Source of the DNA: a virus
DNA: 64,000 bases
Reading direction: 5' to 3' (one strand)
Virus record (IMG/VR): IMGVR_UViG_3300010334_006426
Span: 1 to 64,000 of that record
Shown here: positions 2,125-32,620 of the stretch, piece after piece
Layout: the number at the start of each line of letters is the position of its first letter
Numbering within the stretch: position 1 is the first letter of the stretch
The notes under the pieces: model-generated
What the model was told of the DNA's origin: nothing
What the model saw: only the letters and a program-made list of their open reading frames with translations
Database searches by the model: none
Made by a program: the position numbers and the translations under genes

Positions 2125-2929
2125 ACTTCTTATGAATTTGTTTGAGAATTTTTCTTAACTTAGGTTCGGGGGTATCCTCTACAGATCCGTGCCATGCAGG
2201 ACTTACACCGTGCTTTTTCTTAAAAAGCTCCATTCCGTTTAAAATATTATCCTTCCAATCCGACCTCGGTCGAATAGAGCTACTATTTTCAGAGCATTCT
2301 ATCTCATCTAGATATTTGTGACTGTCAGCTAAATCAGCAAAATTCCAATATGGAGTAAACATACCTGATTTTGTCATTCTATAGTCATGATCTACATGTT
2401 CAAATGCATTGGTGTAATCTTCATCTAAGAGTCCAACATCCTCTAGGACCTGCTTACTATAGTAACAAAATGCCCCTACGCTATGCATGTTTATAGCTAT
2501 TTTTATCTTACCATAATCAATAACATATCTAGGTTGCGGTTCACCGCCTGAAACTCCTCCTTTATTAGCCGGGCCGTGATAACCAAAATTAAAATGCTGT
2601 ATGCCTGTGATGTTTCTAGCCTCAATATATTTTTGAAAAACGTTTGGATCTTTAACTATAATATCATCCTCAACAATAAAGATGTGATCACAGTCGCTGC
2701 CTAGTAAGTAACGAAAAAGTTTATTTTTCGATTTCCCGACACCAAGATTTGTACTATTGTGAAAATAGGTAAATGACTTTTCTTTCTGAAGTTTATCTAT
2801 ATCTTCAAAATCGCTACCATCATTAACAACTGCTAACACGGGGTTATCTGGAATAGATCTAAAGCATTTAAGAAAAAACTTAGGCCTATTACATGTAACA
2901 ATTCCAACACCTATTTTATTTGATTGCAT
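2114..2929 (-). CDS. Glycosyltransferase family 2
   Basis: GIVTCNRP, VVNDGS, NLGVGKSKN, IVEDD, VGLLDE..FEHVD. Confidence 0.8.
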   Translation of the reverse strand: MQSNKIGVGIVTCNRPKFFLKCFRSIPDNPVLAVVNDGSDFEDIDKLQKEKSFTYFHNSTNLGVGKSKNKLFRYLLGSDCDHIFIVEDDIIVKDPNVFQKYIEARNITGIQHFNFGYHGPANKGGVSGGEPQPRYVIDYGKIKIAINMHSVGAFCYYSKQVLEDVGLLDEDYTNAFEHVDHDYRMTKSGMFTPYWNFADLADSHKYLDEIECSENSSSIRPRSDWKDNILNGMELFKKKHGVSPAWHGSVEDTPEPKLRKILKQIHKKYAQ

Positions 2930-3881
2930 AAAAATCCACCTTTCTTAAATCCGATAATTGTGTACCACCACTGTAACTAATGGCAGAAGAAAGATCTTGT
3001 CGAATTTCTTCAAACTTATCTAAATACGTCATAGTGTTGTGAGGTACCTTTTTTAGTGTACCTTCTATGTGTACATTTTCCACTTTATTATGCACAGATG
3101 CTGAGCCGAAATATAATTTATATGTTTGTCCGCTTTCATCCTCAAAAACATCAGCTGGGCTATCGCTGCATTCCGCAAATAATGACCCGCACATAACCAT
3201 ATCTGCACCTGCAACTATTGCTTTAGCAATATCACCATTGCATTTTATCCCACCATCTGCAATAATTGGTATACCGATATTTTCTTGAAAGATATTCCTA
3301 ACACATGTAAACATAGGCATCGTAAAACCGGTTTTATCCTTTGTTGTACAGGCATTACCTTGACCTATACCAACCTTAACCGCATCTGCACCTGCATTCA
3401 TAAGATCTAATGCCGCGTGTGCCGTTGCAATATTACCAGCTATCAAAAACGTTTTTGGTAGCGTATTCTTTATAAACTCCACCATCCTAATACAATCATC
3501 GCTATGACCGTGAGCAATATCAATAGTAATATAGTCTATACTATAATCGCTATTCTTAATACAATTAACAAGCGATATATCTTCTTGCTTAATACCTACA
3601 CTTATTGAGGTATAGAAATTCTCTTCAATTGCTTTAGTTACAAAATATTTGTTATTGTCAAATCTGTGCATTGTGTAAAAAAATCCGTTATTAGCTAATA
3701 CTTTAGCTAGTTTTTCATCAATAGTGCACTTCATATTAGAAGGTATTACAGGCAAATTAAACGTTCTTTGACCGAGCGTTGTAGATACCTTAGCTTTAGA
3801 TCTAGACTTTAATATACCCCGGTTTGGAGTTAAAGTTATGTCACTGTAAGAATATGCAGTCTTAACTACTTCCTGTTGCAC
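2916..3881 (-). CDS. guaC: GMP reductase
   Basis: IMPDH/GMPR barrel without CBS domains: PSNMK, IDIAHGHS, IAGNIAT, KVGIGQGNACTT, IIADGGI, YFGSAS; GTG start. Confidence 0.85.
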   Translation of the reverse strand: MQQEVVKTAYSYSDITLTPNRGILKSRSKAKVSTTLGQRTFNLPVIPSNMKCTIDEKLAKVLANNGFFYTMHRFDNNKYFVTKAIEENFYTSISVGIKQEDISLVNCIKNSDYSIDYITIDIAHGHSDDCIRMVEFIKNTLPKTFLIAGNIATAHAALDLMNAGADAVKVGIGQGNACTTKDKTGFTMPMFTCVRNIFQENIGIPIIADGGIKCNGDIAKAIVAGADMVMCGSLFAECSDSPADVFEDESGQTYKLYFGSASVHNKVENVHIEGTLKKVPHNTMTYLDKFEEIRQDLSSAISYSGGTQLSDLRKVDFYAIK

Positions 3882-3925
3882 TTGTATATATTATAATATA
3901 ACTAAATATAATCAATAAATAATGT
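3882..3925. promoter_or_regulatory. Divergent promoter pair: sigma70-like for guaC (-), late ATAAATA for ORF 3926 (+)
   Basis: Minus: TTGATT-N16-TAATAT-N6-GTG. Plus: ATAAATA-ATGT-ATG. Confidence 0.6.
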
Positions 3926-5011
3926 ATGCTCAATAATAGTGTAAATGTCAGAGATCTAAACCAAGTAGATCAAATTAATGAAGGTGATCTACTTATACTA
4001 GAAACATCTAGCGGTACTAATACTATTGACTTTCAAAATTTTGTTGTCGGACCAAATAACGTAAGTTGGTATTCCAGTTTTTTAGCGGTTAGCTCTATTT
4101 TTACCTCGCTTAGTACACAGGGTACCTTTGCCTCTCTTATAACTCCTACTATTTCATCAACCAATATTACAACAGCAAATATCTCAGCAAGATTTTTAAA
4201 CCTTGTTCATGTACCTGCAAATGATGGTGCTAACCCTAACATTTTTATAGGCGAAGGCACGACAGCTGACGGGTTGACCGGATTTAATATTTTCTTTGAT
4301 GAATTATTAAATCAGTTAACAGTTTCTTCTTCTTTTAGTGGTGTAGTTAATAATACTTTCGTAGCAGATCGTAATGGAAATATTGGGTTAGGCTCAACTG
4401 CTCCTAGCACCAGATTGGAAATTGTTAATAACAGTGCTCTTGATACAGCTACACCCGGTAAAAATAATTTTTATGGGTTACATTTTAACGGCCAAACCAC
4501 CCAGGATTATGCTGGCGGTATAACATGGAACGGTGGGAGTGCTGGTGCCCAGGCAGGAATCTATGTACAGGGTTCTGGACTGTATGGAACAAAAATGTAT
4601 TTCGGTACAACAGATAATTATAATATAGGTTCAAAAACAAGCATGATAATTGATCACAAAGGCAATACTTTAGCACTATCAGGTATCGGGTTTATTAAAA
4701 ATGGCGGAACTGTCACTCAGCCTAGCAGCAAAGGCGATGCTGTCACTATGCATGCACCTGCAGGTAAAATTGCTGTAGCTAGCGGAAATATTCTTTATCC
4801 TGGATACGCATCATTTAATTTTAATAATTTTTGTATTTCAAATACAGATATAATTTTATTACAACAGCAAACAGGTACAATGGGTGCTTATAATATAACA
4901 GCTTTGCCTTCCAATGGATCAGCCACTATAACCATTAGAAATGTTTCTAATGGTGCTTTAAATGAACCTTTTGAGATAAGATTTGCTGTAATAAAGACAG
5001 CCGCTTCTTGA
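3926..5011 (+). CDS. Putative tail fibre / virion appendage protein
   Basis: G/T/S/N-rich, GNIGLGSTAPSTRLEI fibre-type motif, beta-rich C-terminal domain, late promoter. Confidence 0.55.
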   Translation: MLNNSVNVRDLNQVDQINEGDLLILETSSGTNTIDFQNFVVGPNNVSWYSSFLAVSSIFTSLSTQGTFASLITPTISSTNITTANISARFLNLVHVPANDGANPNIFIGEGTTADGLTGFNIFFDELLNQLTVSSSFSGVVNNTFVADRNGNIGLGSTAPSTRLEIVNNSALDTATPGKNNFYGLHFNGQTTQDYAGGITWNGGSAGAQAGIYVQGSGLYGTKMYFGTTDNYNIGSKTSMIIDHKGNTLALSGIGFIKNGGTVTQPSSKGDAVTMHAPAGKIAVASGNILYPGYASFNFNNFCISNTDIILLQQQTGTMGAYNITALPSNGSATITIRNVSNGALNEPFEIRFAVIKTAAS

Positions 5012-5025
5012 TCAAGGCTAGTAAG

Positions 5026-5268
5026 TTAATACTGAAACGTATTATTATCTTCTGGAGTCTCTTCTTTATGAAACGGTAATGCTTTGTAAATCTTGTGTAG
5101 AATTTGCTTATCTTTAAGACCTAATGCTTTTAATCTGGAGTATTCTTTTCTGAAAGCACTTTTAAATTCCATAGAAAGGCTAAAATTTCGCGGGTAAAAC
5201 AACCGGGAAACTGTTTTAATGGGTTTATAGTTTTCTAATATCTTCTTTGCTTTGTTGTCAAAATTCAC
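5026..5268 (-). CDS. Hypothetical late protein
   Basis: ATAAATA 5 nt before GTG; N-terminus MNFDNKAKKILE. Confidence 0.6.
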   Translation of the reverse strand: MNFDNKAKKILENYKPIKTVSRLFYPRNFSLSMEFKSAFRKEYSRLKALGLKDKQILHKIYKALPFHKEETPEDNNTFQY

Positions 5269-5279
5269 ACTATTATTTA

Positions 5280-5975
5280 TTATAGAATACCTTTGTCTTT
5301 TTTCAGAAATTCTTTTTGATCTCTTATTAATTGCTCCATTTTAGCAATCTCATCCATGTTAACTAAGCTTTGCTCTTCACCGTACATTGTGCCTTCCGGT
5401 GTAACATACATTGCAATCTGCTCTATTCTCTCTTCTGTTGTACCGGAGATTTCTATAAGAGCGGGGCTATCGTGTTGTGGGAAAAAAGGCGAGACACCAG
5501 TAGTCTGAATTTGCTTATGAATGGCTTTAAAGATATTATCTATTTCAATAACATATTGTGGGTCAGTTTCCCTAATTAAATTACTTTCTATAGGCCCCAT
5601 TAAATCTCTGGTTATTAGAAAAATAATATCCAATGAGCGCATACTTTCTTTTACTTTTTCTATAGACATATTAATGTAATTTTCATTAAATCCCTTTAGA
5701 CCCTTATCATGTGCCCAGAGCGTATAAACTATATTATCTAACGGGCATCTATCATACACAACCTTATCATGCGGTGTGTAAGGCTTTTGTTGTGTAATCA
5801 TGAAATCTAATATTGCTAGTTGTGTCTTTTTATCTGTTTTTTTACTATGCCTGTTATTTTTTATTACATCTCTATATGTTGTTTTTGGCGTTTTATAATC
5901 AGACCAACGCTCTAGAAATGCTTTTACTACTGTAGTCTTACCTGTACACGCTGTTCCGCTAAAGGCAATCCGCAT
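5280..5975 (-). CDS. P-loop nucleoside/nucleotide kinase-like ATPase (dNMP kinase / NadR-like)
   Basis: N-terminal Walker A SGTACTGKTT and YDRCPLD motif. Confidence 0.65.
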   Translation of the reverse strand: MRIAFSGTACTGKTTVVKAFLERWSDYKTPKTTYRDVIKNNRHSKKTDKKTQLAILDFMITQQKPYTPHDKVVYDRCPLDNIVYTLWAHDKGLKGFNENYINMSIEKVKESMRSLDIIFLITRDLMGPIESNLIRETDPQYVIEIDNIFKAIHKQIQTTGVSPFFPQHDSPALIEISGTTEERIEQIAMYVTPEGTMYGEEQSLVNMDEIAKMEQLIRDQKEFLKKDKGIL

Positions 5976-6009
5976 ATTGTTATAATAGTGTAAAGTTCCT
6001 TGTAATCAA
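5976..6009 (-). promoter_or_regulatory. Sigma70-like promoter abutting the kinase start
   Basis: TTGATT-N16-TATTAT-N6-ATG on the minus strand. Confidence 0.55.
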
Positions 6010-6560
6010 CGGCCAATGAGCGGTTTGAATATATCCTCAAATGTTTTTGGCGGGTTGTTGAATCTATCGGGTTTTCTTAATTCAGCTTCTGTTTGTCCTT
6101 CTCTACCAAAAGGATTTGATTTTGTAGCGCCTTGTGGTATATTTTGAAAAACAATTCTATGTGTTTTAGGCGGTGAGCTTGGACGCGACAATTCTGGATA
6201 ATTTAGTTGATGTGTACCTATAGTTAAATTATCACCATTTAAATTAGCTATGCTACCCATATACGGTCCAAATAATTCATTTATATCTTGTGCCAGTTGC
6301 TGCATAGAATATTGATTTTCAGCTTGTGCTTGCTGTAAGTTTTTACCATTCTCTTGAATATAATTCATTAAATCAGAAATCATTGCTTGAAAAATAGCAT
6401 TAGAACGTTGCTGTAATTCTAAAGGATTTGCAGAATATTTTTGTTCTAAATCTTTTAGTGCTTCATCAAGAACATCCGCTTTTCTCTCCAATTCATCTCT
6501 AAACGTTTCTGCACTAGAAGATGCACCTTCTCTAAGAAAAAACTTGTTAAATGGCTTCAT
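6006..6560 (-). CDS. Hypothetical protein with capsid-targeting-like N-terminus
   Basis: Starts MKPFNKFFLRE; ATGA overlap with the upstream gene. Confidence 0.65.
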   Translation of the reverse strand: MKPFNKFFLREGASSSAETFRDELERKADVLDEALKDLEQKYSANPLELQQRSNAIFQAMISDLMNYIQENGKNLQQAQAENQYSMQQLAQDINELFGPYMGSIANLNGDNLTIGTHQLNYPELSRPSSPPKTHRIVFQNIPQGATKSNPFGREGQTEAELRKPDRFNNPPKTFEDIFKPLIGR

Positions 6561-8260
6561 TTTTTTCTTAATTTATTTACAAAGTCTAAGGTGGTATCAT
6601 ACTCTTGATCTTGTGGTTGTTGATTGTATTGTATAGGAGCAGCTTGCATAGGATTAGCAGCAGTAGCTTGCTTACCAAAAGGATCTAATACTTGTTGACC
6701 AGGTCTAATAATATTTGTAACTTCTTTATATCGTTTTGTTGCTGGATCGTATACAGCGGGAGTAACAAAAGTACCCAAGGCTGCTGCCTGCGCTGGTGTT
6801 AATACACGCCCACCAAAAGTATAGACCATATTACTTTGACCGGGTAGAGTAGGACCAGAGGAAGATTGATCATTATTACCCTCTCCTTCATCTTTCGTTT
6901 CACCACTTCTACCAGAAGTTTCTTTCATTTTTTTATCAAACCATGCATTTAAAGGGTTTATTATATTTGCAAACAATCTTGTCTGCATCTGTCTGTAAGC
7001 TTGGAACGCCGGTAACCCAACTCTAGTTAATTTCTTTACTGTCTTTTTTGCAGATTTTGCTAATCCCTTACCTACACCCTGGATAACTTCTTGCGTTGCA
7101 TTTGCAGCTTTTGTCTCAATAGATTTAGCTGCTTCCTTACTTGCAGCCTCAGCGCCAGTTTCTGCGGTTTTAGCAACTTCTTTTTCAATCTTAGCTGCCC
7201 CCTCCGCTGCTTTTAAAGCCGCACCCGGTGTTGCAATTTTATCAAAATATTTTAAATCTGGATAAACTTTTCGAATCACATCTATTACACTTGCAGGGGG
7301 TATATTGCCCATTTCTTTGCCAATGGTATGAAGATATGGCGCAACTAATGCGTCAGCCGGATTATCTACAATAAACTCAATAGCTTTTTTCACGGCACCT
7401 TCCTCACCATAAACTTCTCTAGGATTTTTTTTCATTCTTTCTCCTAGATGATAAATCTGCTTATCAACTAACTCTTTAAAGGTTTTATTTGTTTTTATGC
7501 CTTCCATTGCTGCTCGCGCGTAGTATTCTGTCCATTTAGCTACTTCCTCTGGTGATTTGCCTTCTAAACCTTTTAACGTGCCGGTTTTTGCAGTAGCCTC
7601 TAAAGTTTCTCCGGTACCTTTACCAAATGCATCAATAGCTGCTTTCTTAGCTTCTGCACCGCCTATTTTTTCAGCTGCCATTGCCATGGCTTCTGGCCCG
7701 CCCTTTGTACCTTTAACCAGCTTTAACATTTTTGTGTATATCTCCTCTATAAGCTTAGGAAATTTTGCGGCATTTTTGGTAGCATAATGGATGCTACCTC
7801 TTAACCCTATCCAACCGCCGCCGCCTATAGCAGCACCGGCTGCGGCACCAGGTATTGCGCCTACACCTGCACCAGCAGCCCCGGCTGCTGCACCTGCACC
7901 TGCGCCCATAAATAGACCCATATTTGGAACACAATTAAACAAATTTAATGCATACATCATCCAATTAAAAGTAGATGGTTTTTTTCTCCAAATAAAATAT
8001 GCTTCAATTGCATCGTCAACAGACATAAGACCTGTAGGATCTATTATTTCTACTGCTGTCATAAATATTTTACCTGCTGTACTATCTGCGTCCCCGGCTA
8101 ACCACTTTAACCCAGGAATTTTTTTACCCTTCAATGCAAATTTACCAATAGGATCAAGTATATTCTTTTCTAGTGGTTCTAAAAAATTACCTAACGATTC
8201 TAACGAACCTTCATTTAAAGGTTTATACTCATTAGCTACATATTGCTTAAACGTTTTCAT
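6557..8260 (-). CDS. Putative head-packaged/ejected protein with glycine-zipper membrane segment
   Basis: Start reassigned to ATG 8260 (MKTFKQYVANE, 1 nt after the upstream stop); DPTG motif followed by a hydrophobic GAGAGAAAGAAGAGVGAIPGAAAGAAIGGGG segment. Confidence 0.6.
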   Translation of the reverse strand: MKTFKQYVANEYKPLNEGSLESLGNFLEPLEKNILDPIGKFALKGKKIPGLKWLAGDADSTAGKIFMTAVEIIDPTGLMSVDDAIEAYFIWRKKPSTFNWMMYALNLFNCVPNMGLFMGAGAGAAAGAAGAGVGAIPGAAAGAAIGGGGWIGLRGSIHYATKNAAKFPKLIEEIYTKMLKLVKGTKGGPEAMAMAAEKIGGAEAKKAAIDAFGKGTGETLEATAKTGTLKGLEGKSPEEVAKWTEYYARAAMEGIKTNKTFKELVDKQIYHLGERMKKNPREVYGEEGAVKKAIEFIVDNPADALVAPYLHTIGKEMGNIPPASVIDVIRKVYPDLKYFDKIATPGAALKAAEGAAKIEKEVAKTAETGAEAASKEAAKSIETKAANATQEVIQGVGKGLAKSAKKTVKKLTRVGLPAFQAYRQMQTRLFANIINPLNAWFDKKMKETSGRSGETKDEGEGNNDQSSSGPTLPGQSNMVYTFGGRVLTPAQAAALGTFVTPAVYDPATKRYKEVTNIIRPGQQVLDPFGKQATAANPMQAAPIQYNQQPQDQEYDTTLDFVNKLRKK

Positions 8261-8261
8261 A

Positions 8262-8885: not shown

Positions 8886-8889
8886 ATAT

Positions 8890-8897
8890 TATTTATA
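8890..8897 (-). promoter_or_regulatory. T4-type late promoter TATAAATA
   Basis: Exact TATAAATA 4 nt before GTG 8885; gp55 is encoded in the window. Confidence 0.75.
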
Positions 8898-8947
8898 TTC
8901 AATACAGGTAATGTATTAGAATATATAAGTCTATCAAATAAAATGAC

Positions 8948-9145
8948 TTATCTATTGATAACTGAGGCTAGTCTGGATTTAAACTGCTCTACAAACTTTT
9001 CTACAAAACTATCTAGAGCTTTATTGCCAGCTTCTATGCCATTATTCTTAATAATATTAGTTAGCTGGTCTTGATTGAGAAGAACTCTCCAGGATTCTTT
9101 GCCACCATTTTCACCAGTAATATTGACATCGATATTAATATTCAT
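8948..9145 (-). CDS. Hypothetical protein
   Basis: 65-aa ORF filling the gap, preceded by TTGCAT-N16-TAAATT. Confidence 0.6.
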   Translation of the reverse strand: MNINIDVNITGENGGKESWRVLLNQDQLTNIIKNNGIEAGNKALDSFVEKFVEQFKSRLASVINR

Positions 9146-9178: not shown

Positions 9179-9925
9179 CTACACCTTTAATGCTTTATCC
9201 CAAATTACAAGTTGTAGCCTAGGACTAAACTTTAAATCATGCTTTTTACATAATTCTGCAACCATTGCCGCCTTATTTGTATGTTCTGTCCTACTACCAC
9301 AACATGGCATTAACCATACCCTATGCTTAGGTACTAATACATCAGGATGTTCGATGTACTTTCGATATACTTCATCTAAATCTCTTAGATCATTAATCAC
9401 AAATTTAAAGCCTGAACCCGCCCTAACGTGCCATCTGAGGACGGTAGGTTTATATCTTTTTTCTTCTGAATCACCATTATTCGATAGCTTTGGCGAAGTT
9501 GTATATGTAGCTTGATATACTGACCATTCATCTAATGGCTGTATAGTTGCATTTGTTTCGAAATCAATTTTAGGTATAAACCCATTTCTCTTAGAAAACT
9601 CTCTTACTAGCTCCAATAAAGCTTTCTGCTGGATAAGAGGTTCACCGCCAGTAATCTTCCATATTGCTCCATCACGTAAATGCTTTGTGTGTCCTTCATT
9701 GTCTAATATATCAAGAATATCATTAACTGTAAAACGGTTTTTTACGGACCAACTGACAAAACTATCACAACCATGAGGTGAATCAGCTGATGCAAACCCC
9801 TTGCAAGTTAAATTACACATTGAAACTCGCATGAAAACTGAGGGCATGCCCGCATATTCTCCTTCACCTTCAATAGTATAAAAAATCTTATCATCGCTTA
9901 AGAAAATAATAGGTTGCTCACTCAT
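9179..9925 (-). CDS. queE: 7-carboxy-7-deazaguanine synthase (radical SAM)
   Basis: IFYTIEGEG..G.PSVFMR..CNLTC..CDS, ITGGEPL, ETNAT, SPKL, SPRLQ; other que genes nearby. Confidence 0.85.
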   Translation of the reverse strand: MSEQPIIFLSDDKIFYTIEGEGEYAGMPSVFMRVSMCNLTCKGFASADSPHGCDSFVSWSVKNRFTVNDILDILDNEGHTKHLRDGAIWKITGGEPLIQQKALLELVREFSKRNGFIPKIDFETNATIQPLDEWSVYQATYTTSPKLSNNGDSEEKRYKPTVLRWHVRAGSGFKFVINDLRDLDEVYRKYIEHPDVLVPKHRVWLMPCCGSRTEHTNKAAMVAELCKKHDLKFSPRLQLVIWDKALKV

Positions 9926-9976
9926 TATTAATATAATATATGCTTTATTCGGTTATTCAAGAATAAATATATATAG
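9926..9976. promoter_or_regulatory. Divergent promoter pair: sigma70-like for queE (-), late for phoH (+)
   Basis: Minus: TTGAAT followed by an AT-rich -10 just before ATG. Plus: ATAAATA-N7-ATG. Confidence 0.55.
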
Positions 9977-10720: not shown

Positions 10721-11359
10721 TTACATACCCCAGCTAGTACCGCCAAATGGATTTGACCAACCTGTTGTAACGTTGTTACCCACTGTTGTACGTGCTGGTA
10801 ACGAGGCATTACCAGTGCTACTATCTACCTTTACATTCTCGACAGGCTTTTGATCAAACGGAAGCTCAAATTGCTCTGCATATACTTTAGCTGTATGTTT
10901 ATCACATGAACACTTACGACTCTCCGCAGAGACGATTGCAGAATTTTTATCATGCTCCCAAACTTCAACCTTTTGTACCCAACATCTATTGTTTGTTATG
11001 CCTCTTACATGTGCATCAGCCACATCAAAACACCAGTCTGCTGTTCTTTCAATGCCCACACCTTTATGCATAATTCTAAGATCTGCTGCACCGGCATCAT
11101 GCAAAGCTTTAAATTGATCTAACAATGGGTCATCTGCAGAAACACAAAATGTATGGTCAAATTGTTTTTCTAAAACTTGCTTGAGTTCCTTTAATCCACC
11201 AAAATCTACAACCCAATTTCTTTCATCCAGTCTATCACATGCAAACCAAAATTTTGCTACTAACCTGTAACCATGTATTAATTTGCAATGACTATCTGCT
11301 CTCCATTGCCTAAATGCACAACTACCTAATTCAATTATCTTTGTACTCTCAAATTGCAT
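10721..11359 (-). CDS. queD: 6-carboxytetrahydropterin synthase (QueD/PTPS family)
   Basis: SHCKLIHGY, WVVDFGGLK, FDHT, VEVWEHDKNSA. Confidence 0.8.
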   Translation of the reverse strand: MQFESTKIIELGSCAFRQWRADSHCKLIHGYRLVAKFWFACDRLDERNWVVDFGGLKELKQVLEKQFDHTFCVSADDPLLDQFKALHDAGAADLRIMHKGVGIERTADWCFDVADAHVRGITNNRCWVQKVEVWEHDKNSAIVSAESRKCSCDKHTAKVYAEQFELPFDQKPVENVKVDSSTGNASLPARTTVGNNVTTGWSNPFGGTSWGM

Positions 11360-11394
11360 ATGTTTATATTAATATGCAAATACGGCTAATCAAG

Positions 11395-11717: not shown

Positions 11718-12974
11718 TTATATTAAATTAACACCTTTTAATTCTTTTAAAACAAATATAATAGGCTTAGTCGACTTTTTAATTTGCGGCAACTCTGCAA
11801 GTTTTTGCATAACTTTATCAAATTTATCTAGATTTCTATCTTTATTTGGTAATATTTTGTCAGAAATTTTATTTACCATATCGCCTAAATCATCTGGCAG
11901 GTTATTTGCAAGCAATTCTTCTAATGCCTTTCTAACAGTCTGTCTTACTTCGTCTTGAATAGTCTGTAAGGATATTTTACCCTCTTGATCTGTAATTCTA
12001 TTTAGAACTGAAATGATTTTACTTCCTTGATAATCCATAACCTTTGCATTGTAATATCTATCTTGTTCTTTTATTTTTTTAAATTTAATAATTAATATAC
12101 CTTTTTGCTCGGGATTGCCTAGAACTGCAAAATCTAAGCTTAAATCTATTTCCCTAGCTAGTTCAGTAGGCTCTAGTTCTATAATTTGGTTAACTTTTCT
12201 TCTACCTTCGAAAATACCTTTAGTGGTCATTCCTGAAGCCTGGTACTCCACCACCCCGTGCTTCATAGTCTTTAAGCCTTTAAGAGGTAAATTTTTTACA
12301 TAAATAGTATCGCCTTCCCTAACACCAGTAGGATATTCTTTTGACTTAGCTTTTCCATATCTGTCTACATCTACTAAATCATTAGGATTTAATGTTCTTA
12401 TAAATTTACCCAATTTACCTATAAAATTATTTTTACCTACAACAAACTTAGGAATACTAGAATAGGCTGATACGGCTTTGCCCGCTAAATTGCCTGCTGT
12501 TTTTAATAAATCGATAGGTGATAATCCTGGTATTAAATCTACTCCACTTTCATTTTGTAATATATTCTTATAAAAAGCCTTTAATTTTTCACTTTCATAA
12601 CCTAGTTCTTTTAAATAGGTTTCTATAAATTCATCGTTATTACTATTGAGAATATTTTTATAGCTAGGATTATCTTTGTTGATATTATTTTTCTGCAAAG
12701 CAGTTAAGATTTTTTTTTTGAAATTATCGAATGATGGTTTTTCTTGTACCGGTTCTATATGCTTCTTATCAACAGTCTGAATAGGTTCTATATTACTAGG
12801 GACATTTAATACATATACTTCAACAGTGTCAATACTTTCTGATAATATATAGCCTTCAAAGCTAGATACATTCTCATAGCCAAATGTAGATAGCTGTGAC
12901 GGGTCTACCTTAATTCTAACTTTCTTGAGCTTAGTTTGACCTAATGCTCTTTCAATTAAACCATCTACACGCAT
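11718..12974 (-). CDS. Hypothetical late protein
   Basis: 418-aa ORF; ATAAATA directly upstream. Confidence 0.7.
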   Translation of the reverse strand: MRVDGLIERALGQTKLKKVRIKVDPSQLSTFGYENVSSFEGYILSESIDTVEVYVLNVPSNIEPIQTVDKKHIEPVQEKPSFDNFKKKILTALQKNNINKDNPSYKNILNSNNDEFIETYLKELGYESEKLKAFYKNILQNESGVDLIPGLSPIDLLKTAGNLAGKAVSAYSSIPKFVVGKNNFIGKLGKFIRTLNPNDLVDVDRYGKAKSKEYPTGVREGDTIYVKNLPLKGLKTMKHGVVEYQASGMTTKGIFEGRRKVNQIIELEPTELAREIDLSLDFAVLGNPEQKGILIIKFKKIKEQDRYYNAKVMDYQGSKIISVLNRITDQEGKISLQTIQDEVRQTVRKALEELLANNLPDDLGDMVNKISDKILPNKDRNLDKFDKVMQKLAELPQIKKSTKPIIFVLKELKGVNLI

Positions 12975-13020
12975 ATGTTATTTATCCTTGATTAACCATG
13001 TTTATAACTTATAATAATGT
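12975..13020. promoter_or_regulatory. Divergent promoter pair: sigma70-like for folE (+), late for ORF 12974 (-)
   Basis: Plus: TTGATT(12988)-N16-TATAAT(13010)-N5-ATG. Minus: ATAAATA-ACAT-ATG. Confidence 0.7.
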
Positions 13021-13677
13021 ATGGTTAAAAAACGTAATTTACAATTTGCAAATCACAATCACCCAGTAAACGAGCAAGAAAAACAAGAGATTATAGATAA
13101 AGCGGCTAAAGCCTATGAATCTTACATGGATGCTCTTGGCTATGATTGGAGAAATGATCCGAACAGCGCTAATACACCACATAGGGTTGCTAAGGCTTTC
13201 GTAGAGGATTTTGCCTGGGGATGTTATAGTGAACCTCCTAAGATCACAGCATTTGATAATATAGATAAGTATGATGGCATAGTTGCGCAGACTAATATCA
13301 AAGTTACTTCTCTGTGCTCTCATCATCATGCACCTTTTACAGGTTTTGCACATGTCGCATATATCCCATCTAAAAATGGAAAGGTTATTGGGTTGAGTAA
13401 GCTTAATAGAATAGTTGATTGGTTCTCGCGTAGACCACAAGTTCAAGAAAACTTAACAATGCAAATACACGATTATATCGATACAGTTTGTGAAAAGAAT
13501 AATGGCGTTGCAGTTATGATTGAAGCAGGACATACTTGTTGCTCCAATAGAGGTATCAGGCATGACTCTACTATGCGTACGGCTAGAATGTCAGGGGCCT
13601 TTCTAGACAATAAAGATAACTCTAGGGCCGAGTTTTACAAGTTTGTTGAGTTTGCACAAAATAGAAAACTTACCTGA
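13021..13677 (+). CDS. folE: GTP cyclohydrolase I
   Basis: TPHRVAK, SLCSHHHAPF.G.AHVAYIP, GLSKLNRIV..FSRRPQVQE, HTC...RG. Confidence 0.92.
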   Translation: MVKKRNLQFANHNHPVNEQEKQEIIDKAAKAYESYMDALGYDWRNDPNSANTPHRVAKAFVEDFAWGCYSEPPKITAFDNIDKYDGIVAQTNIKVTSLCSHHHAPFTGFAHVAYIPSKNGKVIGLSKLNRIVDWFSRRPQVQENLTMQIHDYIDTVCEKNNGVAVMIEAGHTCCSNRGIRHDSTMRTARMSGAFLDNKDNSRAEFYKFVEFAQNRKLT

Positions 13678-25387: not shown

Positions 25388-26611
25388 ATGTTCGCTTCTA
25401 ACCCCTTTACCCCGCCGCTTTTACAACATACGCAATACTCTAACCCTATTGCACCTTCACAATCTATTGTACAGGCTGATAATTCATTGCCGCCAGAGGT
25501 CAATTTACCTAGAGTTGTTCAATATTATGCAGATTACTCTGGCTGTGGATTCTGGCGTATGCTTTGGCCTGAGCATTTATTAAATGCCTATGGACATATG
25601 ACAGTTCACGGTAGTACAGTAATGGTTCTCGATCCAAGATGGTACGTAAATGTTAAAGCAGTAAGAGTTCAAAGACAGGCAACTTCATCACAATTGCAGT
25701 TTGTAAAGTTTTTAAAAGAGGTATCCAAGCAGATTGGTTTTAGAATTATTTACGAGATAGATGATTTAGTATTTTGTGAAGATATACCAGATTATAATAA
25801 ATTTAAAACGGCTTTCGTTGATCCTGAGATCAGAAAAAATGCTCAAGAGATAATGTCGTTGTGCGACGAGATTACTGTTACGTGTGATTTCATGAAAGAC
25901 TATTATGCTGAAAAAACAGGGCATAAAAATATTACTGTAATACCTAATTTTCCGCCAAAATTTTGGTTAGGACATTTTTATGATGAAAAGACAATAAGTT
26001 CTAATTACGATATCTATAAAAACAAGCCAAGAATTTTATACGCTGGATCAGGAGCTCATTTTGATGTTGAAAACCGTGTAAACCAAAACGATGACTTTGC
26101 TCATGTTGTTAAAGCTATATATGATACACACAATGAATTTCAGTGGGTATTTTTAGGCGCTTACCCGCTTGCATTGAGACCTTTAATTGAAGCTGGTGTA
26201 GTCGAGTTTCATCCCTGGGTAAATCTTTATAATTATGGTGAGAAAATTAAAAATTTAAGAATTAATATGGTTGTTGCTCCGCTTCAGAACAATACATTCA
26301 ACAAAAGTAAATCAGATTTAAAATGGATCGAAGCTAATTGCTTTGGCTTACCTATTGCCTGCCAGGACTTATGTACATACAAAGATGCTGAGTTTAGGTT
26401 TAAAACAGGCGATGAGATGATTGAGAATATTAGGGAAGTTCTTAGTAAGAAGGGCAGATATATGAATATTTGTTCAGCTGCACGTAAGCAAGCAGATAAG
26501 CGTTGGTTGGAGAATGATGAAAATCTGGCGTGTTATCGCGAACTATTCAGCTTCCCTTACGGAAGTAAAGATAGAGCTCAGCTCAATAGAATTAATAATA
26601 TTAAAGCTTAG
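25388..26611 (+). CDS. GT-B fold glycosyltransferase
   Basis: SGCGFWRM.WP, YEIDD, VIPN, APLQNNTFNKSKSDLKWIEA. Confidence 0.75.
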   Translation: MFASNPFTPPLLQHTQYSNPIAPSQSIVQADNSLPPEVNLPRVVQYYADYSGCGFWRMLWPEHLLNAYGHMTVHGSTVMVLDPRWYVNVKAVRVQRQATSSQLQFVKFLKEVSKQIGFRIIYEIDDLVFCEDIPDYNKFKTAFVDPEIRKNAQEIMSLCDEITVTCDFMKDYYAEKTGHKNITVIPNFPPKFWLGHFYDEKTISSNYDIYKNKPRILYAGSGAHFDVENRVNQNDDFAHVVKAIYDTHNEFQWVFLGAYPLALRPLIEAGVVEFHPWVNLYNYGEKIKNLRINMVVAPLQNNTFNKSKSDLKWIEANCFGLPIACQDLCTYKDAEFRFKTGDEMIENIREVLSKKGRYMNICSAARKQADKRWLENDENLACYRELFSFPYGSKDRAQLNRINNIKA

Positions 26612-26927
26612 TTAAGACTTTAAACAGATAGCAAATACTTGGATAAGTTATAAACGTTAATACAGGTGTAATCAACGTTGCATTAGAAAAAAGTACAAAA
26701 AGTATTCCTACCAAAAGAGAAAGCCAGAAACTCAAACATATCCAACAAGACAATAGCTTACTGAGAAACGGACTCTTAATACACAGATAGTCATCAAACT
26801 CCATATTAATAATAAAGTCTTTGTTAAAGAAAATTTTGCCAAGAGTTATTTTAAGTGGGCTACCAAACCATAATAACAGAAGACTGCAAACAAATAAAGA
26901 ACCTGTAAAAAAATCTATAATGCTCAT
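26601..26927 (-). CDS. Small membrane protein with CxxC (DUF1360-like)
   Basis: Start reassigned to ATG 26927; hydrophobic helices, LLSCWICLSFW. Confidence 0.6.
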   Translation of the reverse strand: MSIIDFFTGSLFVCSLLLLWFGSPLKITLGKIFFNKDFIINMEFDDYLCIKSPFLSKLLSCWICLSFWLSLLVGILFVLFSNATLITPVLTFITYPSICYLFKVLTKL

Positions 26928-27115
26928 TGTATTAACTGTTGCTGTAACCTTGCAATATATTGCTGTCTTAGGTTTCTTTCTGCACAACTCCCACACCCGC
27001 CTTGCTTTCGTACGTTATCAAAATCTTGGCCATACTGATGCCGGAGAGATTCACAGTCCCTGATTTTGTCAGGGCATGGCTTAGTAAAATCAAAGAATTG
27101 CATTATTTCATCCAT
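26924..27115 (-). CDS. Small Cys-containing protein
   Basis: Start reassigned to ATG 27115 (MDEIMQFF); CP..C..GGCGSC; ATGA coupling to the next gene. Confidence 0.6.
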   Translation of the reverse strand: MDEIMQFFDFTKPCPDKIRDCESLRHQYGQDFDNVRKQGGCGSCAERNLRQQYIARLQQQLIQ

Positions 27116-27160
27116 ATAATATATTATTGCTAAAGTAAGAAAATCAATTATTATATATAG

Positions 27161-29746
27161 ATGATAGGATATAGAAATGTTGCATACGACCCGAGGCAAG
27201 AGCTTATACGCTTGTTTACCTGGGATAGTAATGGAAAGAGAGTTGCTATTGACTCTACTTTTCATCCTTATATATTCCTAGAAAGTAACAATTCTCAAGA
27301 CGCTACAAGTATCTTTAATACAAAATTAAAGAAAAAAAGCTTTAGAAATCAATTTGAAAAATCCAGATATTTAAATGAAACTAAAACAAGTAGAATTTTT
27401 GAAAATTTATCTCCCTCGCAGCAATTCCTGATTGATAATTTTTGGCAAGTAAATGAGAGTGCTGAATTCTCACAATTTCCCCTTAAACTATTTTTTCTAG
27501 ATATCGAAACATATTCTGTAGATGACTTTCCAAATATCGAAACTGCCAATCATCCTATTAATATCATAACTATTTATGATACTTTAGTTAAAAAATTTGT
27601 AACTTGGGGTACTAAACCTTATCATAAAATTGCAGAGGATCAGGTTTATTTTTACTGTAAAACTGAAAGAGAGATGCTTGAAAGATTTATAAAACATTTT
27701 GAAAATGATTATCCTGACGTTGTGCTGGGATGGAATTCAGTATTGTTCGACTTGCCATATTTAATTAATAGAATTAGAGGATTGTTCGATGATGCCACGG
27801 TAGCAAGATTAAGCCCTATGCAAAGGGTACATAGTAGAACCCTCAGAGGACAATTTGGTAAGGAGCAAGTAAGATGGTATATTGACGGTATATCGTGCTT
27901 AGACTACCTAGATATTTACAAGCGTTTCTGCATGGTATTGAGAGAGAATTATAAGCTCAATAATATTACTAAAATAGAGCTGGGTGAACAAAAGATAGAT
28001 TACGGTGAAACTAATTTGAGTAGTCTTGCTGATACAGATTGGGGCAAATTTGTCGAATATAACATTCAGGACGTACGACTACTTGTTAGATTAGAGGAAA
28101 AGTTACAATATTTTCAATTATTACGAATGTTAAGCTACACAGGATTAACAACAATGGAAGCTGCGATGGGTAGTATGAGCGTCATTATCGGCGCATGTGC
28201 TGTAAGGGCAAGATATAGAAATAAAAAAATACCTACTTTTATTAGAGGAGAAGACGATGGAAAGCAGAACGAGGGTGCCTACGTGAGTGAGCCAAAAAGA
28301 GGATTTCAGAAGAGTGTTGTCAGTTTTGATGCAAACAGTCTATATCCGTCTGTGATGATAACTTTAAATTTATCCCCTGAAACAAAGATGGGTGTTATAG
28401 AGAATCAAACAAAAGAAGAAGTCACAATTAGGGATACTAACAACAATATGGTTACTCTTCCTATATCTAAATTTGCTACTTTAGTGCAGCAAGAGAAACT
28501 AAGCATAAGTAAAGCTAAAGTTTTGTTTAGTCAGAAGCACAAAGGGATTATCCCTGAAATGGTTGATTTATATTACAAATATCGCGTCCAGGTGAGAAAA
28601 GATTTAAAGAAAGTCAAGAGACATCTTACCACACTAATAAAGGGGACAGCGGAATATCAAAAGACTAAAGACGAGATAAACGTTTTGAATATCAAGCAAC
28701 ACACGATAAAAATCTTTATTAATACAGTCTACGGGGCACTTGGCAATAAAGTTTTTCCTCTTGGAGATGATGACCTGGCTAGAAGTATTACACTAACCGG
28801 GCAGGCAGTTATTAAGCAAGGCAATATTATACTATCAAACTATATTAAGGAAAAGGCTAATCTATCAGAAGATGATATTAAGAAGGATACACCAATCATT
28901 TATAATGATACAGACTCAGTATATATCACATTACAGTCTTTAATCGAAAAAGCAGGCTTGCCATTTCTTAATAACGGCAAAATTGCACCTGAGTTTTATA
29001 AAGAAGTTGAAAATATAGAGAATTATCTCAATTCTCAGATAAAGCTCTGGTGTGAGAAGTCTCTAAATAGCCATGACAGTAGAATTATTTTTAAACGCGA
29101 AGCAATTTGTGACGTTGGTGTTTTCCTACAAAAAAAACGCTATGTTATTCATATTTTAGATGAAGAAGGTATACCTACAGAGAAATTTAAGTATACAGGT
29201 GTAGAAATAGCTAGAACAACAATGCCTGCACCAATTAAGCCGCACGCAAAAAGAATTGTTGAAACAATGTTACTAACTCAAGATCAGCAAAAGACGGGTG
29301 AGGTAATTGCCGAGACATACGATTTATTTAAAACGCTTCCTTTTAACGATATATCTTTTGTTACTGGTTTAAAGGGCTATGAAAAGTATTCTCACCGTTG
29401 CGATGGGTTTAAAACTGTCAAATCAATGCCCTTACACGTAAAAGCTGCTTATATGCACAACTTGTTATTAACGACTTTTAATATTGACAAGAAGTATGAA
29501 AAAATAGGGTCAGGAGATAAGATAAGATATTTTTATGTCAAGCAGCCTAATAAGTTTAATATTAGTGCTATCGCATACAAATATTATTATCCGGAAGAAT
29601 TTGCTAATATATTTGAACCAGATCATGATTTAATGTTTGAAAAGATTATATACAGTGCTGTAGAGCGTTTTTACGAAGCAGTGAACTGGGTACCTAAAAA
29701 ACCAGGTGAAGCGCTTCAATGCGATTTATTTTCACTTTTAAGTTGA
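27161..29746 (+). CDS. gp43: Family B DNA polymerase gp43
   Basis: Exonuclease DIET, GWNS..FDLPY, YNIQD; polymerase SFDANSLYPS, KIFINTVYG, YNDTDS, KKRY. Confidence 0.95.
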   Translation: MIGYRNVAYDPRQELIRLFTWDSNGKRVAIDSTFHPYIFLESNNSQDATSIFNTKLKKKSFRNQFEKSRYLNETKTSRIFENLSPSQQFLIDNFWQVNESAEFSQFPLKLFFLDIETYSVDDFPNIETANHPINIITIYDTLVKKFVTWGTKPYHKIAEDQVYFYCKTEREMLERFIKHFENDYPDVVLGWNSVLFDLPYLINRIRGLFDDATVARLSPMQRVHSRTLRGQFGKEQVRWYIDGISCLDYLDIYKRFCMVLRENYKLNNITKIELGEQKIDYGETNLSSLADTDWGKFVEYNIQDVRLLVRLEEKLQYFQLLRMLSYTGLTTMEAAMGSMSVIIGACAVRARYRNKKIPTFIRGEDDGKQNEGAYVSEPKRGFQKSVVSFDANSLYPSVMITLNLSPETKMGVIENQTKEEVTIRDTNNNMVTLPISKFATLVQQEKLSISKAKVLFSQKHKGIIPEMVDLYYKYRVQVRKDLKKVKRHLTTLIKGTAEYQKTKDEINVLNIKQHTIKIFINTVYGALGNKVFPLGDDDLARSITLTGQAVIKQGNIILSNYIKEKANLSEDDIKKDTPIIYNDTDSVYITLQSLIEKAGLPFLNNGKIAPEFYKEVENIENYLNSQIKLWCEKSLNSHDSRIIFKREAICDVGVFLQKKRYVIHILDEEGIPTEKFKYTGVEIARTTMPAPIKPHAKRIVETMLLTQDQQKTGEVIAETYDLFKTLPFNDISFVTGLKGYEKYSHRCDGFKTVKSMPLHVKAAYMHNLLLTTFNIDKKYEKIGSGDKIRYFYVKQPNKFNISAIAYKYYYPEEFANIFEPDHDLMFEKIIYSAVERFYEAVNWVPKKPGEALQCDLFSLLS

Positions 29747-29776
29747 TTTTTTTTAAGCATCATATATATTATTGAT

Positions 29777-30136
29777 ATGAGTAATATTATTGTTTTTGTA
29801 AATCATGTCGGTCAAACCCTTATTGCAGAGCAGCTGCAAGAAACTAAGGATAATTTAAAAATTAAGAATCCTGCTATTCTGCATGTTGTTCCTAATCAAA
29901 CGGGTCAACTGCAAGTTCAATTAATTCCATATTTTTTCAAGGAATTTATTGAACCTAAGGCAAGAAAAGAAGGTGCTATTTTTAATTTTGATAAGTCTAA
30001 GGTTGTTTCTAGCGAGATTAAGCTAGAACCAAAGCTTGCAGAGCAGTACAATCGCATCTTTTCTGATACCCCTGTTGCAAATGCTACATCACAGCAGGGC
30101 GGCGAAGCTTCAGTTATCAAGTTGTTTGACGAATGA
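29777..30136 (+). CDS. Hypothetical protein
   Basis: 119-aa ORF leading the uvsX operon; TTGATT..TATTAT promoter at 29743. Confidence 0.7.
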   Translation: MSNIIVFVNHVGQTLIAEQLQETKDNLKIKNPAILHVVPNQTGQLQVQLIPYFFKEFIEPKARKEGAIFNFDKSKVVSSEIKLEPKLAEQYNRIFSDTPVANATSQQGGEASVIKLFDE

Positions 30137-31215
30137 AGCAAGACGAGATACTGTCAAAAGCATTTAAAGCGTTAGATGCCCTTAACCCGGAAGCTACGTT
30201 TTTATCTGAAAACGCACTCTGTAATGTTGATACTTGGTATGATACAGGCTGCTACGCTCTAAATGCTATTGTATCTGGTAAACTACGTGAAGGCGGTATC
30301 CCTAAGGGTAGAATAACAATATTTGCCGGTCCTTCGCAAACAGGTAAAACATTGCTTGTAAATAAAATTCTTGGACTAGCTCAGAAGAAAGGTATTATAC
30401 CAGTAATATTTGATACTGAGTTTGCTATTGACAAGACAACCACCGCTGGTGTTGGTCTTGATCCAGATAAAACAAAATATGTACCTGTTTATACTATTGA
30501 AAATGCTCGTAATCAAATCAGTACATTTTTAGATAGTATTGTTGAGAATAATCTACAAGGTAAATTTATTATTAGCTTAGATAGCTTAGGTAATCTTGCA
30601 GGTAGTAAAGAAGTTTCAGATGTTGAGAAAGACAAGAGCGCTGCCGATATGGGCACAAGAGCTAAAGGGTTAAAGAGTATGCTAAGACTTTTAACTTATA
30701 AAGCGGGTCGCGCAGGTGTCCCTATTCTGATGACTAATCATACTTATAGCGATCCTGCATCACTGTATCCTTCACTAGTACAAAATCAAAGCGGTGGCAG
30801 TGGCCCTCTTTATATGGCTAGTGTAATTGTTCAGTTAGCTAAGAGAAATGAAAAGCAGGAAAATGAAGAGGAAGCAATCCTGCCTGAAGCTAAGAATTAT
30901 AATGGCGTAACATTGAGAGCACTGACTGTAAAAAATAGATTTGTACCGCCTTTTCTTGAGGCTAGCATTAATTTGAACTATTTAACTGGTCTCGATAAGT
31001 ATAGTGGCTTACTCGAGATGGCTGTTAACCATGGTTTGATTATTCAAACCGGTTCTACTTACACCAAACCAGACGGTACCAAGCTAGGTTACGCAAAGAA
31101 CTTTACTAAAGATAAAAAGTTCTTTGATGAGTTAATCCCTTTGCTAGATAAAAAGCTTGAAACCGCATACAAATATGGAAACGTATCTGATGAGGTTGTG
31201 AGTGAAAAAGAATAA
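30133..31215 (+). CDS. uvsX: UvsX RecA-like recombinase
   Basis: DTGCYALN, GPSQTGKT, FDTE, LDSLGNL, DMGTRAK, TNHTY, SGGSG, KNRF. Confidence 0.92.
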   Translation: MKQDEILSKAFKALDALNPEATFLSENALCNVDTWYDTGCYALNAIVSGKLREGGIPKGRITIFAGPSQTGKTLLVNKILGLAQKKGIIPVIFDTEFAIDKTTTAGVGLDPDKTKYVPVYTIENARNQISTFLDSIVENNLQGKFIISLDSLGNLAGSKEVSDVEKDKSAADMGTRAKGLKSMLRLLTYKAGRAGVPILMTNHTYSDPASLYPSLVQNQSGGSGPLYMASVIVQLAKRNEKQENEEEAILPEAKNYNGVTLRALTVKNRFVPPFLEASINLNYLTGLDKYSGLLEMAVNHGLIIQTGSTYTKPDGTKLGYAKNFTKDKKFFDELIPLLDKKLETAYKYGNVSDEVVSEKE

Positions 31216-31945
31216 AGTAGTTGTTCCTATTTCCGGCGGTATGGATAGTACTGTCATTTTATATAAAGCTGTAGAGCAGTTTGGCGTAGAAAATGTTCTT
31301 GGATTATCATACGATTATGGCCAACGGCACAAAAGAGAATTAAAATTAGCAAAATACCATATTGAAAAATTAAAAATAAAAGAATGGTCTACTATTGACG
31401 TGACGTTTATCAGACAGCTTGCACCAACAAGTAGTTTGACTAATGATGATATTGATACACCTGATATAAGACAAATCGCGGGTGAGGCGCAACCTAAATC
31501 GTATGTTCCAAATAGAAATATGATTTTTTTGAGCATTGCTGCTTCGTATGCAGAAGCTGTAGGCGCTAGTGTGGTGTATCACGGTGCGACTAAAGTTGAT
31601 AGTTTAGCCGGCTACTGGGATGCTAGTCCAGAATTTCTACCAACTATTAACAGTGTATTAGCTCTTAATAGAGAAATTAGAATTAGTATAGAAGCCCCGT
31701 TAATAGAAATGGATAAGGCTGATATTGTAAAAGAGGGTATTAGACTGAAAGTACCGTTTAGCAAAACATATACGTGTTATTCTGGTGAAAATTTGAGCGA
31801 TGCAAATTCACCTAGCAGTGCATTGCGTATCAAAGGATTTGCAAAAGCTGGTTATATAGACCCTCTTAAATATAGACAAGATTTAAGCAATGTATGGGAA
31901 AAGTATAATTGTAGATTAATTGACTACGACACATATAATAATTAA
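31202..31945 (+). CDS. queC: 7-cyano-7-deazaguanine synthase-like (atypical, Zn-cysteines lost)
   Basis: PP-loop SGGMDS, YGQRH..EL, YVPNRNMIFLS, GYWD, APL...K. Confidence 0.85.
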   Translation: MKKNKVVVPISGGMDSTVILYKAVEQFGVENVLGLSYDYGQRHKRELKLAKYHIEKLKIKEWSTIDVTFIRQLAPTSSLTNDDIDTPDIRQIAGEAQPKSYVPNRNMIFLSIAASYAEAVGASVVYHGATKVDSLAGYWDASPEFLPTINSVLALNREIRISIEAPLIEMDKADIVKEGIRLKVPFSKTYTCYSGENLSDANSPSSALRIKGFAKAGYIDPLKYRQDLSNVWEKYNCRLIDYDTYNN

Positions 31946-32620
31946 ATGTGTGGTATTTTTGGAGCGACTGAAAGAGAGCAATTTCTCACCCTCTACGAAT
32001 TAAATCAAAAGAGAGGCAATTTTGCCACATCGCTCTGCTTTGTTAATAAGAAAGGCGATATGCATATTCATCGCTGGAGCGGCGTCATAGATACTCGGCA
32101 AATTAAAAAAACTCTAGATAATACAGAAGAAGAAATTGTTATGCTTGTCGGTCATACACAAGCACCTACTTCCTCGAAAAGAAAGTATTCTGCAGAAACC
32201 GCTCACCCTTTTAACGTACAAAACTATACAATAGCACATAATGGGGTTTTATCTAATTTTAATGATTTGAAGGAAATGTTTGACCCTAAATGGAAGAATC
32301 CTGTTGATAGTAGTATTATACCTTTTATGTGTACAATGTATGAAGAAGAATTTCCAAACAGTGAAAGTATAGAAGCAATTATACATACGCTAGGTAAACT
32401 GGAAGGTACGTTTGGACTATGGATATATGAATCATCGCGCAATACAATGTATCTTGCAAGATGTGGTAGTACGTTGTTTGCTAATAAAATAGAAAATAGT
32501 TTTAGCAGTGTAAAATTTAAAAACTCTGAAGCTCTGGACGAAGGGAGTTTATATCAATTGACACCTGAAGGGATTACAGCTGTAGGGGTGTTTGACTGTG
32601 ACAGTCCGTTCTTTACTTAA
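31946..32620 (+). CDS. Class II (Ntn) glutamine amidotransferase
   Basis: N-terminal MCGIFG, GHTQAPT, AHPF, AHNG, VDS; directly after queC. Confidence 0.85.
   Translation: MCGIFGATEREQFLTLYELNQKRGNFATSLCFVNKKGDMHIHRWSGVIDTRQIKKTLDNTEEEIVMLVGHTQAPTSSKRKYSAETAHPFNVQNYTIAHNGVLSNFNDLKEMFDPKWKNPVDSSIIPFMCTMYEEEFPNSESIEAIIHTLGKLEGTFGLWIYESSRNTMYLARCGSTLFANKIENSFSSVKFKNSEALDEGSLYQLTPEGITAVGVFDCDSPFFT

Follow-up and report, generated by a model that had tools for sequence, protein, structure and literature searches.

DpdA3 was defined by Cui et al. (2023) from the protein CGPG_00065 of Cellulophaga phage phiST and was found in Campylobacter phages formerly thought to be DpdA-less; its proposed action is post-replicative (PMC10516641). 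In the DNA of Flavobacterium phage immuto 2-6A, guanine (G) is fully replaced by 7-(formylamino)methyl-7-deazaguanine (PMC10516641, Table 1). In Campylobacter phage CP220 (Firehammervirus), dADG replaces 100% of G and the pathway ends at CDG/ADG (PMC10516641), while phiST has a DpdA3/DpdL system (dDG). The DpdA proteins of the DpdA1/DpdA2 phages (9g, CAjan) and of the bacterial DpdA/DpdB/DpdC systems match the Pfam family TGT (tRNA-guanine transglycosylase), have additional elements and modify no more than ∼30% of G. Here, the 7-deazaguanine genes of an uncultured phage were analyzed in a window, bases 1-64000 of a linear IMG/VR contig of 105,140 bp (record IMGVR_UViG_3300010334_006426); window and contig share the same numbering start. 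What the phage carries is the known DpdA3/DpdN system in a variant form; its route is not free of DpdA. The window holds one half of a two-part system of the DpdA3 type, the half that supplies the precursor, and the second half lies at contig 97.0-103.3 kb. That this system modifies the DNA of a T4-like phage with 7-deazaguanine is considered very probable.

The contig is ∼50% complete (CheckV) and has a GC content of 32-37%. A T4-type replication and recombination set (gp43, UvsX, UvsY, UvsW, gp46/47 and gp55) is encoded in the window, and the gp43 polymerase has only ∼30% identity to that of any cultured phage; the source is a T4-like phage that branches deeply and is uncultured. Comparisons included a complete relative, G001 (229,717 bp, CheckV 100%), and a neighborhood survey of 59 IMG/VR loci that extend 5 kb or more downstream of DpdA3 and share 51% identity or more with the query.

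Identification of DpdA3

Neither Pfam TGT (PF01702) nor a DpdA3 profile found a TGT/DpdA in the window, as had been noted in an earlier sequence-only reading of this DNA, and the DpdA3 profile matched the contig once, outside the window. On the whole contig and in three relatives (G001-G003) Pfam TGT had no match at E ≤ 10. This silence is not evidence of absence, because Pfam TGT is blind to DpdA3; a DpdA3 was present in every relative examined.

When the founding DpdA3, CGPG_00065 from the phiST record, was used as query, the contig gave one full-length match at 102,520-103,296 (-) with an E-value of 5e-10 and 24-26% identity over the full length. The gene occupies contig 102,520-103,317 (-), ∼40 kb past the window, and encodes 268 aa; the TTG listed as the start of its open reading frame (ORF) is a -35 box, and the promoter-based start lies at contig 103,317. 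The sequence-only reading had built on the possibility that dpdA is absent genome-wide and had named a dpdA elsewhere in the genome beforehand as the refuting observation; this gene is that observation. Its DpdA-less precedent, the Campylobacter phages, is lost as well, since CP220 encodes a DpdA3 (PMC10516641).

The protein was 45% identical (3e-49) to CP220 gp056 and 41% identical (1e-53) to immuto gp206, which is annotated "DNA guanine transglycosylase". It matched phrog_19058 with an E-value of 2.5e-53, whereas the phiST protein belongs to a separate DpdA3 subgroup (phrog_20335). A search of protein clusters gave ∼3,250 relatives and one of 50%-identity representatives gave 1,708, and at least 539 IMG/VR loci encode a relative.

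The AlphaFold2 (AF2) model of the protein had a predicted local distance difference test (pLDDT) score of 96.6 with a 108-sequence alignment, compared with 38 from the single sequence. The top 50 Foldseek matches of this model were all tRNA-guanine transglycosylases (probability 1.0), and VIA-align to the TGT fold gave a Z of 18.3 and a root-mean-square deviation of 2.8 Å over 231 of 270 residues. The best PDB match of the family profile was the Salmonella DNA-guanine transglycosylase DpdA (7UI4), across HLLG...D(T/S)S. Three residues, D55, D86 and D213, were invariant in the 108 DpdA3 sequences. D213, in the motif DTSNP, aligned to the Asp of the 7UI4 'SIDS' motif, and the Asp spacing was 31 and 127 residues vs. 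35 and 126 for D95/D130/D256 of bacterial DpdA (bDpdA). D55 and D86 would be catalytic-type Asp by this spacing, not by residue-level superposition. Taken together, the homology to the founding member, the predicted TGT-type TIM-barrel, the three Asp and the co-occurring 7-deazaguanine genes indicate that the protein is a DpdA3. The DpdA1/DpdA2 phages and the bacterial Dpd systems likewise combine preQ0 supply genes with a TGT-fold transglycosylase and three catalytic Asp; the present protein differs from DpdA1/DpdA2 in that Pfam TGT finds nothing and in that its family is tied to complete replacement.

Organization and conservation of the DpdA3 operon

DpdA3 stands at the head of the second cluster, a single co-oriented and partly overlapping operon outside the window. 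It is followed by genes for an AsnB-like amidotransferase (contig 101,202-102,479, -), a flavin-dependent halogenase-like protein (contig 99,556-101,133, -), the formyltransferase DpdN (contig 98,982-99,566, -; 46% identity to immuto gp204, DpdN, E 4e-63), DUF1599 (contig 98,645-98,992, -), an AAA_28 P-loop kinase (contig 97,888-98,469, -) and a bimodular QueF (contig 96,990-97,910, -; TIGR03138 E 8.5e-79). The full immuto-type complement, namely FolE, QueD, QueE, QueC, QueF, DpdN and DpdA3, is present on the contig (7/7). The order DpdA3...DpdN-kinase-QueF is shared with immuto, which itself has DpdA3, a small ORF, DpdN, a kinase and QueF. As gene set and order match those of immuto, its base (fdPreQ1-type) or a close relative of that base is predicted. 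The two phages differ in their polymerases, which belong to family A in immuto and to family B in the T4-like phage described here, and in their layout, as the preQ0 genes of this phage lie ∼70 kb from DpdA3, scattered among replication genes. Compared with immuto, GuaC, DUF1599 and a glutamine amidotransferase (GATase) partner for QueC are additions of the clade; additions of this phage are the AsnB-like and halogenase-like genes, and its guaC has moved.

Across the 59 loci the kinase and QueF were each found in 59, DpdN in 50, DUF1599 in 40, GuaC in 19, the halogenase in one and the AsnB-like gene in none. The split layout was also directly observed in G001, which has DpdA3-DpdN-GuaC-DUF1599-kinase-QueF at 78.7-83.0 kb, gp43-uvsX-queC-GATase at 154-160 kb and folE, queD, phoH, queE and kinA at 174-180 kb. 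Natural DpdA3-DpdN fusions were present among metagenomic proteins (P0127 and P0197, 447 aa), which argues that insertion and formylation may be physically coupled. For DUF1599, family membership was confirmed (Atlas); no PDB match, no similarity to the phiST MazG and no literature on its function were found.

The AsnB-like and halogenase-like pair (L007:4556-7479, minus strand) sits between DpdA3 and DpdN. It is a rare insertion and may represent either further base derivatization or an incidental insertion. In the first case the final base would be other than fdPreQ1, as an amidated, halogenated or oxidized derivative made by the AsnB-like and halogenase-like proteins; another such product would be the archaeosine base (G+), made through QueC and the GATase. 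We consider a final base of either kind improbable. Both extra genes do lie inside the operon, with the halogenase-like stop overlapping the dpdN start, locus L011 likewise has a halogenase in this slot, and the pyrrole ring of a 7-deazapurine would be a chemically plausible substrate for a halogenase. Against a derivative stand the rarity of the two genes in the survey and the halogenase-like protein itself, in which GxGxxG and the VFKFA Lys are present but the WxWxIP motif is degenerate, reading GWRFEIA. In addition, the closest AsnB-like homologues were located outside deazaguanine clusters (in S-SCSM1 beside a glycosyltransferase and in G001 at 54.8 kb), so insertion at this slot may be incidental.

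PreQ0 synthesis genes in the window

The genes folE, queD, queE, queC and the GATase gene have a total span of 23.4 kb and lie, together with guaC and a kinase gene, within 2916-32620, where the sequence-only reading had placed them. The queE product (9179-9925, -), a 7-carboxy-7-deazaguanine synthase of the radical SAM type, matched Fer4_12 and many phage QueE and was 38% identical (E 1e-38) to an annotated halovirus QueE. The queD gene (10721-11359, -) encodes a 6-carboxytetrahydropterin synthase with a PTPS fold (PF01242 E 1.2e-17; phrog_2389 QueD-like E 4e-38) and a C-terminal extension, and folE (13021-13677, +) encodes GTP cyclohydrolase I (PF01227 E 1.2e-47). The 7-cyano-7-deazaguanine synthase gene queC (31202-31945, +) scored 172 bits against TIGR00364 (cut-off 150). 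Directly 3' of it lies the gene for a stand-alone class-II (Ntn) GATase with the N-terminus MCGIFG (31946-32620, +; GATase_6/7). Both belong to the overlapping run orf119-uvsX-queC-GATase; orf119 and uvsX form the head of this operon (29743-31215 including the promoter, +), and the uvsX stop overlaps the queC start.

QueC was found to be without the CxxCxxC zinc site. In the alignment to PDB 3BL5 three Cys are replaced and the first Cys alone is kept, in the C-terminal part encoded by window 31775-31945. Immuto QueC (L008:4516-5397) has the same loss and a similar S-rich motif. Because immuto, with a zinc-less QueC, makes a preQ1 derivative, the loss is compatible with function, and the protein appears to be a phage QueC subtype, not a broken gene.

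The queC-GATase pair bears on G+ as an end product. A fused Gat-QueC yields dG+ in phage 9g (PMC6884629), the adjacency is kept in G001, and similar GATase-QueC pairs recur in large Vibrio phages. Gat-QueC is defined by a class-II GATase fused N-terminally to QueC, and in the window there are two separate genes, queC and then the GATase. Moreover, QueF is universal in the clade, so preQ0 must flow to preQ1 and not to G+.

FolE, QueD, QueE and QueC alone are the queuosine precursor genes too, and a role in tRNA or pterin supply was once proposed for phages without DpdA (PMC6884629). That this phage leaves its DNA unmodified and uses the pathway to boost host tRNA queuosine or the pterin/folate supply is nevertheless highly improbable, as DpdA3 and DpdN are on the same contig, have the same promoter class and are orthologous to those of chemically proven DNA-modifying phages.

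An ORF between queD and folE (11718-12974, -, 418 aa) was the first DpdA candidate and was rejected as a pathway enzyme. It had no Pfam, PHROG or phage tblastn match, has a late-type promoter upstream and is only 30% conserved in G001; its product is probably a virion or injected protein.

Early promoter class shared with replication genes

The pattern TTGAWT-N15-17-TAWWWT-N4-8-ATG was found at 11 sites in the window vs. 0.39 ± 0.63 in shuffled sequences; a count of 11 was reached in none of 100. This significance is confined to the start-codon-anchored version, as a generic -35/-10 scan without the anchor gave 42 sites vs. 35 ± 5, which is not above chance in AT-rich DNA. Matching sites are present upstream of kinA (TTGATT-N16-TATTAT-N6-ATG, 5982-6009, -), queE (TTGAAT-N16-TATTAT-N7-ATG, 9933-9960, -), queD (TTGATT-N16-TAATAT-N6-ATG, 11366-11393, -), folE (TTGATT-N16-TATAAT-N5-ATG, 12988-13020, +), uvsY and orf119 (TTGATT-N16-TATATT-N6-ATG, from 29743, +). 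The same layout occurs in variant form at guaC, which has a GTG start (TTGATT-N16-TAATAT, 6 nt to GTG, 3888-3915, -), and at the family-B DNA polymerase gene gp43, which has TTGCTA as its -35 box (TTGCTA-N16-TATTAT-N6-ATG; promoter and gene at 27127-29746, +). The DpdA3 operon has a promoter of the same class, TTGATT-N15-TATAAT-N6-ATG, with the start at contig 103,317. A sigma70-like promoter class shared with the replication genes, as claimed in the sequence-only reading, is thereby borne out, and its view of the scattered genes as one co-regulated 7-deazaguanine pathway is supported.

For 18 ORFs of the contig, 5-7 nt separate the end of the -10 box from the start codon, and a Shine-Dalgarno sequence is lacking (examples at 12988-13023, 29743-29779 and 36432-36468, and at contig 103,317). 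This spacing suggests that the early mRNAs are probably leaderless. A geometry like that of the early class has been reported for the late TATAAATA promoters.

As a separate observation, the contig carries at least five glycosyltransferase (GT) genes (GT11, a GT25+GT2 fusion, GT2, a phrog_7162 GT and GT2_5). Glycosyltransferases are encoded at window 11-2929 (-), 25388-26611 (+) and 33506-34156 (+); three of the genes lie directly downstream of guaC, and two have a promoter of the early class. Their products may act on the virion, the host envelope or DNA.

Nucleotide enzymes linked to DpdA3

The product of guaC (2916-3881, -, GTG start) scored 357.4 bits against NF003966 (NCBIfam; cut-off 344), matched PDB 1YPF from end to end (E 1e-80) and has kept the catalytic Cys loop (GIGQGNACTTK aligned to GIGPGKVCITK of 1YPF). 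The equivalog-level score and the loop identify it as a predicted GMP reductase. In relatives, guaC is placed between dpdN and DUF1599 within the DpdA3 cluster; 16 of the 19 survey loci with GuaC have it there. GuaC is a real, clade-specific member of the DpdA3 neighborhood, and it was not found in CP220, immuto, phiST or Chryseobacterium phage MA9V-3. In this phage guaC is relocated relative to the clade, ∼100 kb from the DpdA3 cluster, with the early promoter retained. Between this protein and the GuaC that relatives have within the cluster, identity is only ∼52%, compared with 64-89% for neighboring genes, which suggests relocation plus replacement or fast divergence.

The kinase gene of the window, kinA (5280-5975, -), encodes an AAA_28 P-loop kinase (Pfam AAA_28 E 7.7e-10; phrog_2107 'thymidylate kinase'). 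KinA is a distant paralogue of the DpdA3-cluster kinase (27% identity, E 4e-6), and G001 has a 70% identical orthologue 1.1 kb from queE. Homologues of the cluster kinase flank DpdA3 in CP220 (34%, E 7e-18) and immuto (28%, E 1e-15) and were absent from phiST and MA9V-3. No solved structure was related by sequence to KinA or to the cluster kinase. The assignment of GuaC and the kinase to the pathway in the sequence-only reading holds, given that the guaC of relatives is inside the DpdA3 cluster and an AAA_28 kinase is always there.

All five large relatives encode a small Gpt-like phosphoribosyltransferase (PRTase) at a distance of 8-12 kb from DpdA3 (5/5; in G001 at 65.7 kb, L030:1453-1929), with homology to the enzymes of immuto and phiST. 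It was found neither on this contig nor in CP220 or MA9V-3. By analogy with the relatives, its gene would in this phage fall beyond the end of the contig, which lies just past gp5.

Like the phage described here, CP220 is a T4-like myovirus, with a related QueE, and it differs in being without GuaC and PRTase. In its gp055-gp057 region (L009:6868-9361), DpdA3 lies between a fusion protein of an HD-phosphohydrolase and a P-loop domain and the immediately adjacent kinase homologue. The phiST system is without QueC, QueF, DpdN and the AAA_28 kinase and has DpdL and a MazG-like gene. A search for dGTP-clearing enzymes found no MazG or HD gene in G001-G003.

Discussion

In the model that we favor, FolE, QueD, QueE and the zinc-less QueC would convert GTP to preQ0, the adjacent GATase probably feeding ammonia to QueC, and QueF would reduce preQ0 to preQ1. 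DpdA3, as a minimal TGT-fold transglycosylase, would swap guanine in the phage DNA for the deazaguanine, and DpdN would formylate the aminomethyl group to give 7-(formylamino)methyl-7-deazaguanine, the base measured in immuto. For GuaC, the kinases and, in relatives, the PRTase, we infer roles in the guanine nucleotide economy and in the salvage of displaced guanine, by which GTP could be directed to FolE or GMP drained to IMP. All units would be transcribed early from one promoter class, alongside the replication genes. The model as a whole, from preQ0 through preQ1 and DpdA3 exchange to DpdN formylation, is on balance probable, and post-replicative base exchange specifically is given a little better than an even chance.

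Several points weigh against this model. The base was measured in immuto and is a prediction from the genes for this phage, and the AsnB-like and halogenase-like operon genes may alter the final product. DpdA3 activity was not reconstituted, and tests in E. coli failed (PMC10516641). The protein consists of the barrel core only and has no zinc subdomain, and with a median isoelectric point (pI) of 5.5 its family is acidic; such a minimal, acidic protein is unexpected for an enzyme that would have to act on each G of the DNA. A kinase of the nucleoside/nucleotide type accompanies DpdA3 in all 59 loci, as tightly as QueF, and also in CP220 and immuto, while the HD-P-loop protein of CP220 and the MazG-like gene of phiST adjoin DpdA3; a DNA-level model has no need of such neighbors. 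If the sole purpose of GuaC were FolE supply, it would waste GMP.

The kinase linkage, the HD-P-loop and MazG-like neighbors and the minimal, acidic DpdA3 fit an alternative in which the base enters at the nucleotide level, before replication. The deazaguanine would be turned into a mononucleotide either by the Gpt-like PRTase of the relatives or by DpdA3, with (d)GMP/(d)GTP as its substrate for base exchange, the P-loop kinase or kinases would phosphorylate the analogue, GuaC would drain GMP and thereby lower competing dGTP, and gp43 would incorporate the product; in a variant of this scheme DpdA3 might only patch residual G. Incorporation by gp43 would explain 100% replacement, and replacement was complete in all DpdA3 phages tested (PMC10516641). 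The GuaC genes embedded in the DpdA3 cluster and the homologous PRTases of the clade, immuto and phiST are in line with such a scheme, as is ADG nucleoside in infected cells, relayed in PMC10516641 from Crippen 2019. However, all characterized TGT-fold enzymes act on polynucleotides, and the three catalytic-type Asp are kept. The complete relative has no dGTPase-type gene (HD, MazG), unlike other total-replacement phages. The distribution of the enzymes is patchy, the PRTase being missing in CP220 and MA9V-3 and the kinase in phiST and MA9V-3, and no solved relative assigns a substrate to the kinase. The authors who defined DpdA3 favor post-replicative insertion (PMC10516641). Entry at the nucleotide level therefore appears doubtful, although it is less remote than an end product other than fdPreQ1. 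The sequence-only reading had made a deoxynucleoside triphosphate (dNTP) route conditional on the lack of a DpdA. That premise fails, and with DpdA3 on the same contig the route is no longer needed; the nucleotide enzymes linked to DpdA3 keep the idea itself viable.

Post-replicative exchange by DpdA3 followed by DpdN formylation remains our preferred reading. The result also disposes of an apparent exception: the phage is not DpdA-less, its DpdA3 being invisible to Pfam TGT and located outside the window. The DpdA3/DpdN/QueF system is thereby assigned to a very large clade of uncultured T4-like phages. The published model leaves the linkage of the kinase, GuaC, DUF1599 and the Gpt-like PRTase unexplained, and the paper on DpdA3 makes no mention of the kinase (PMC10516641). 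These nucleotide enzymes are concrete targets for assays of whether the 100% replacement of G takes place before or after replication, a question that bears on restriction evasion and on the making of fully deaza-substituted DNA.

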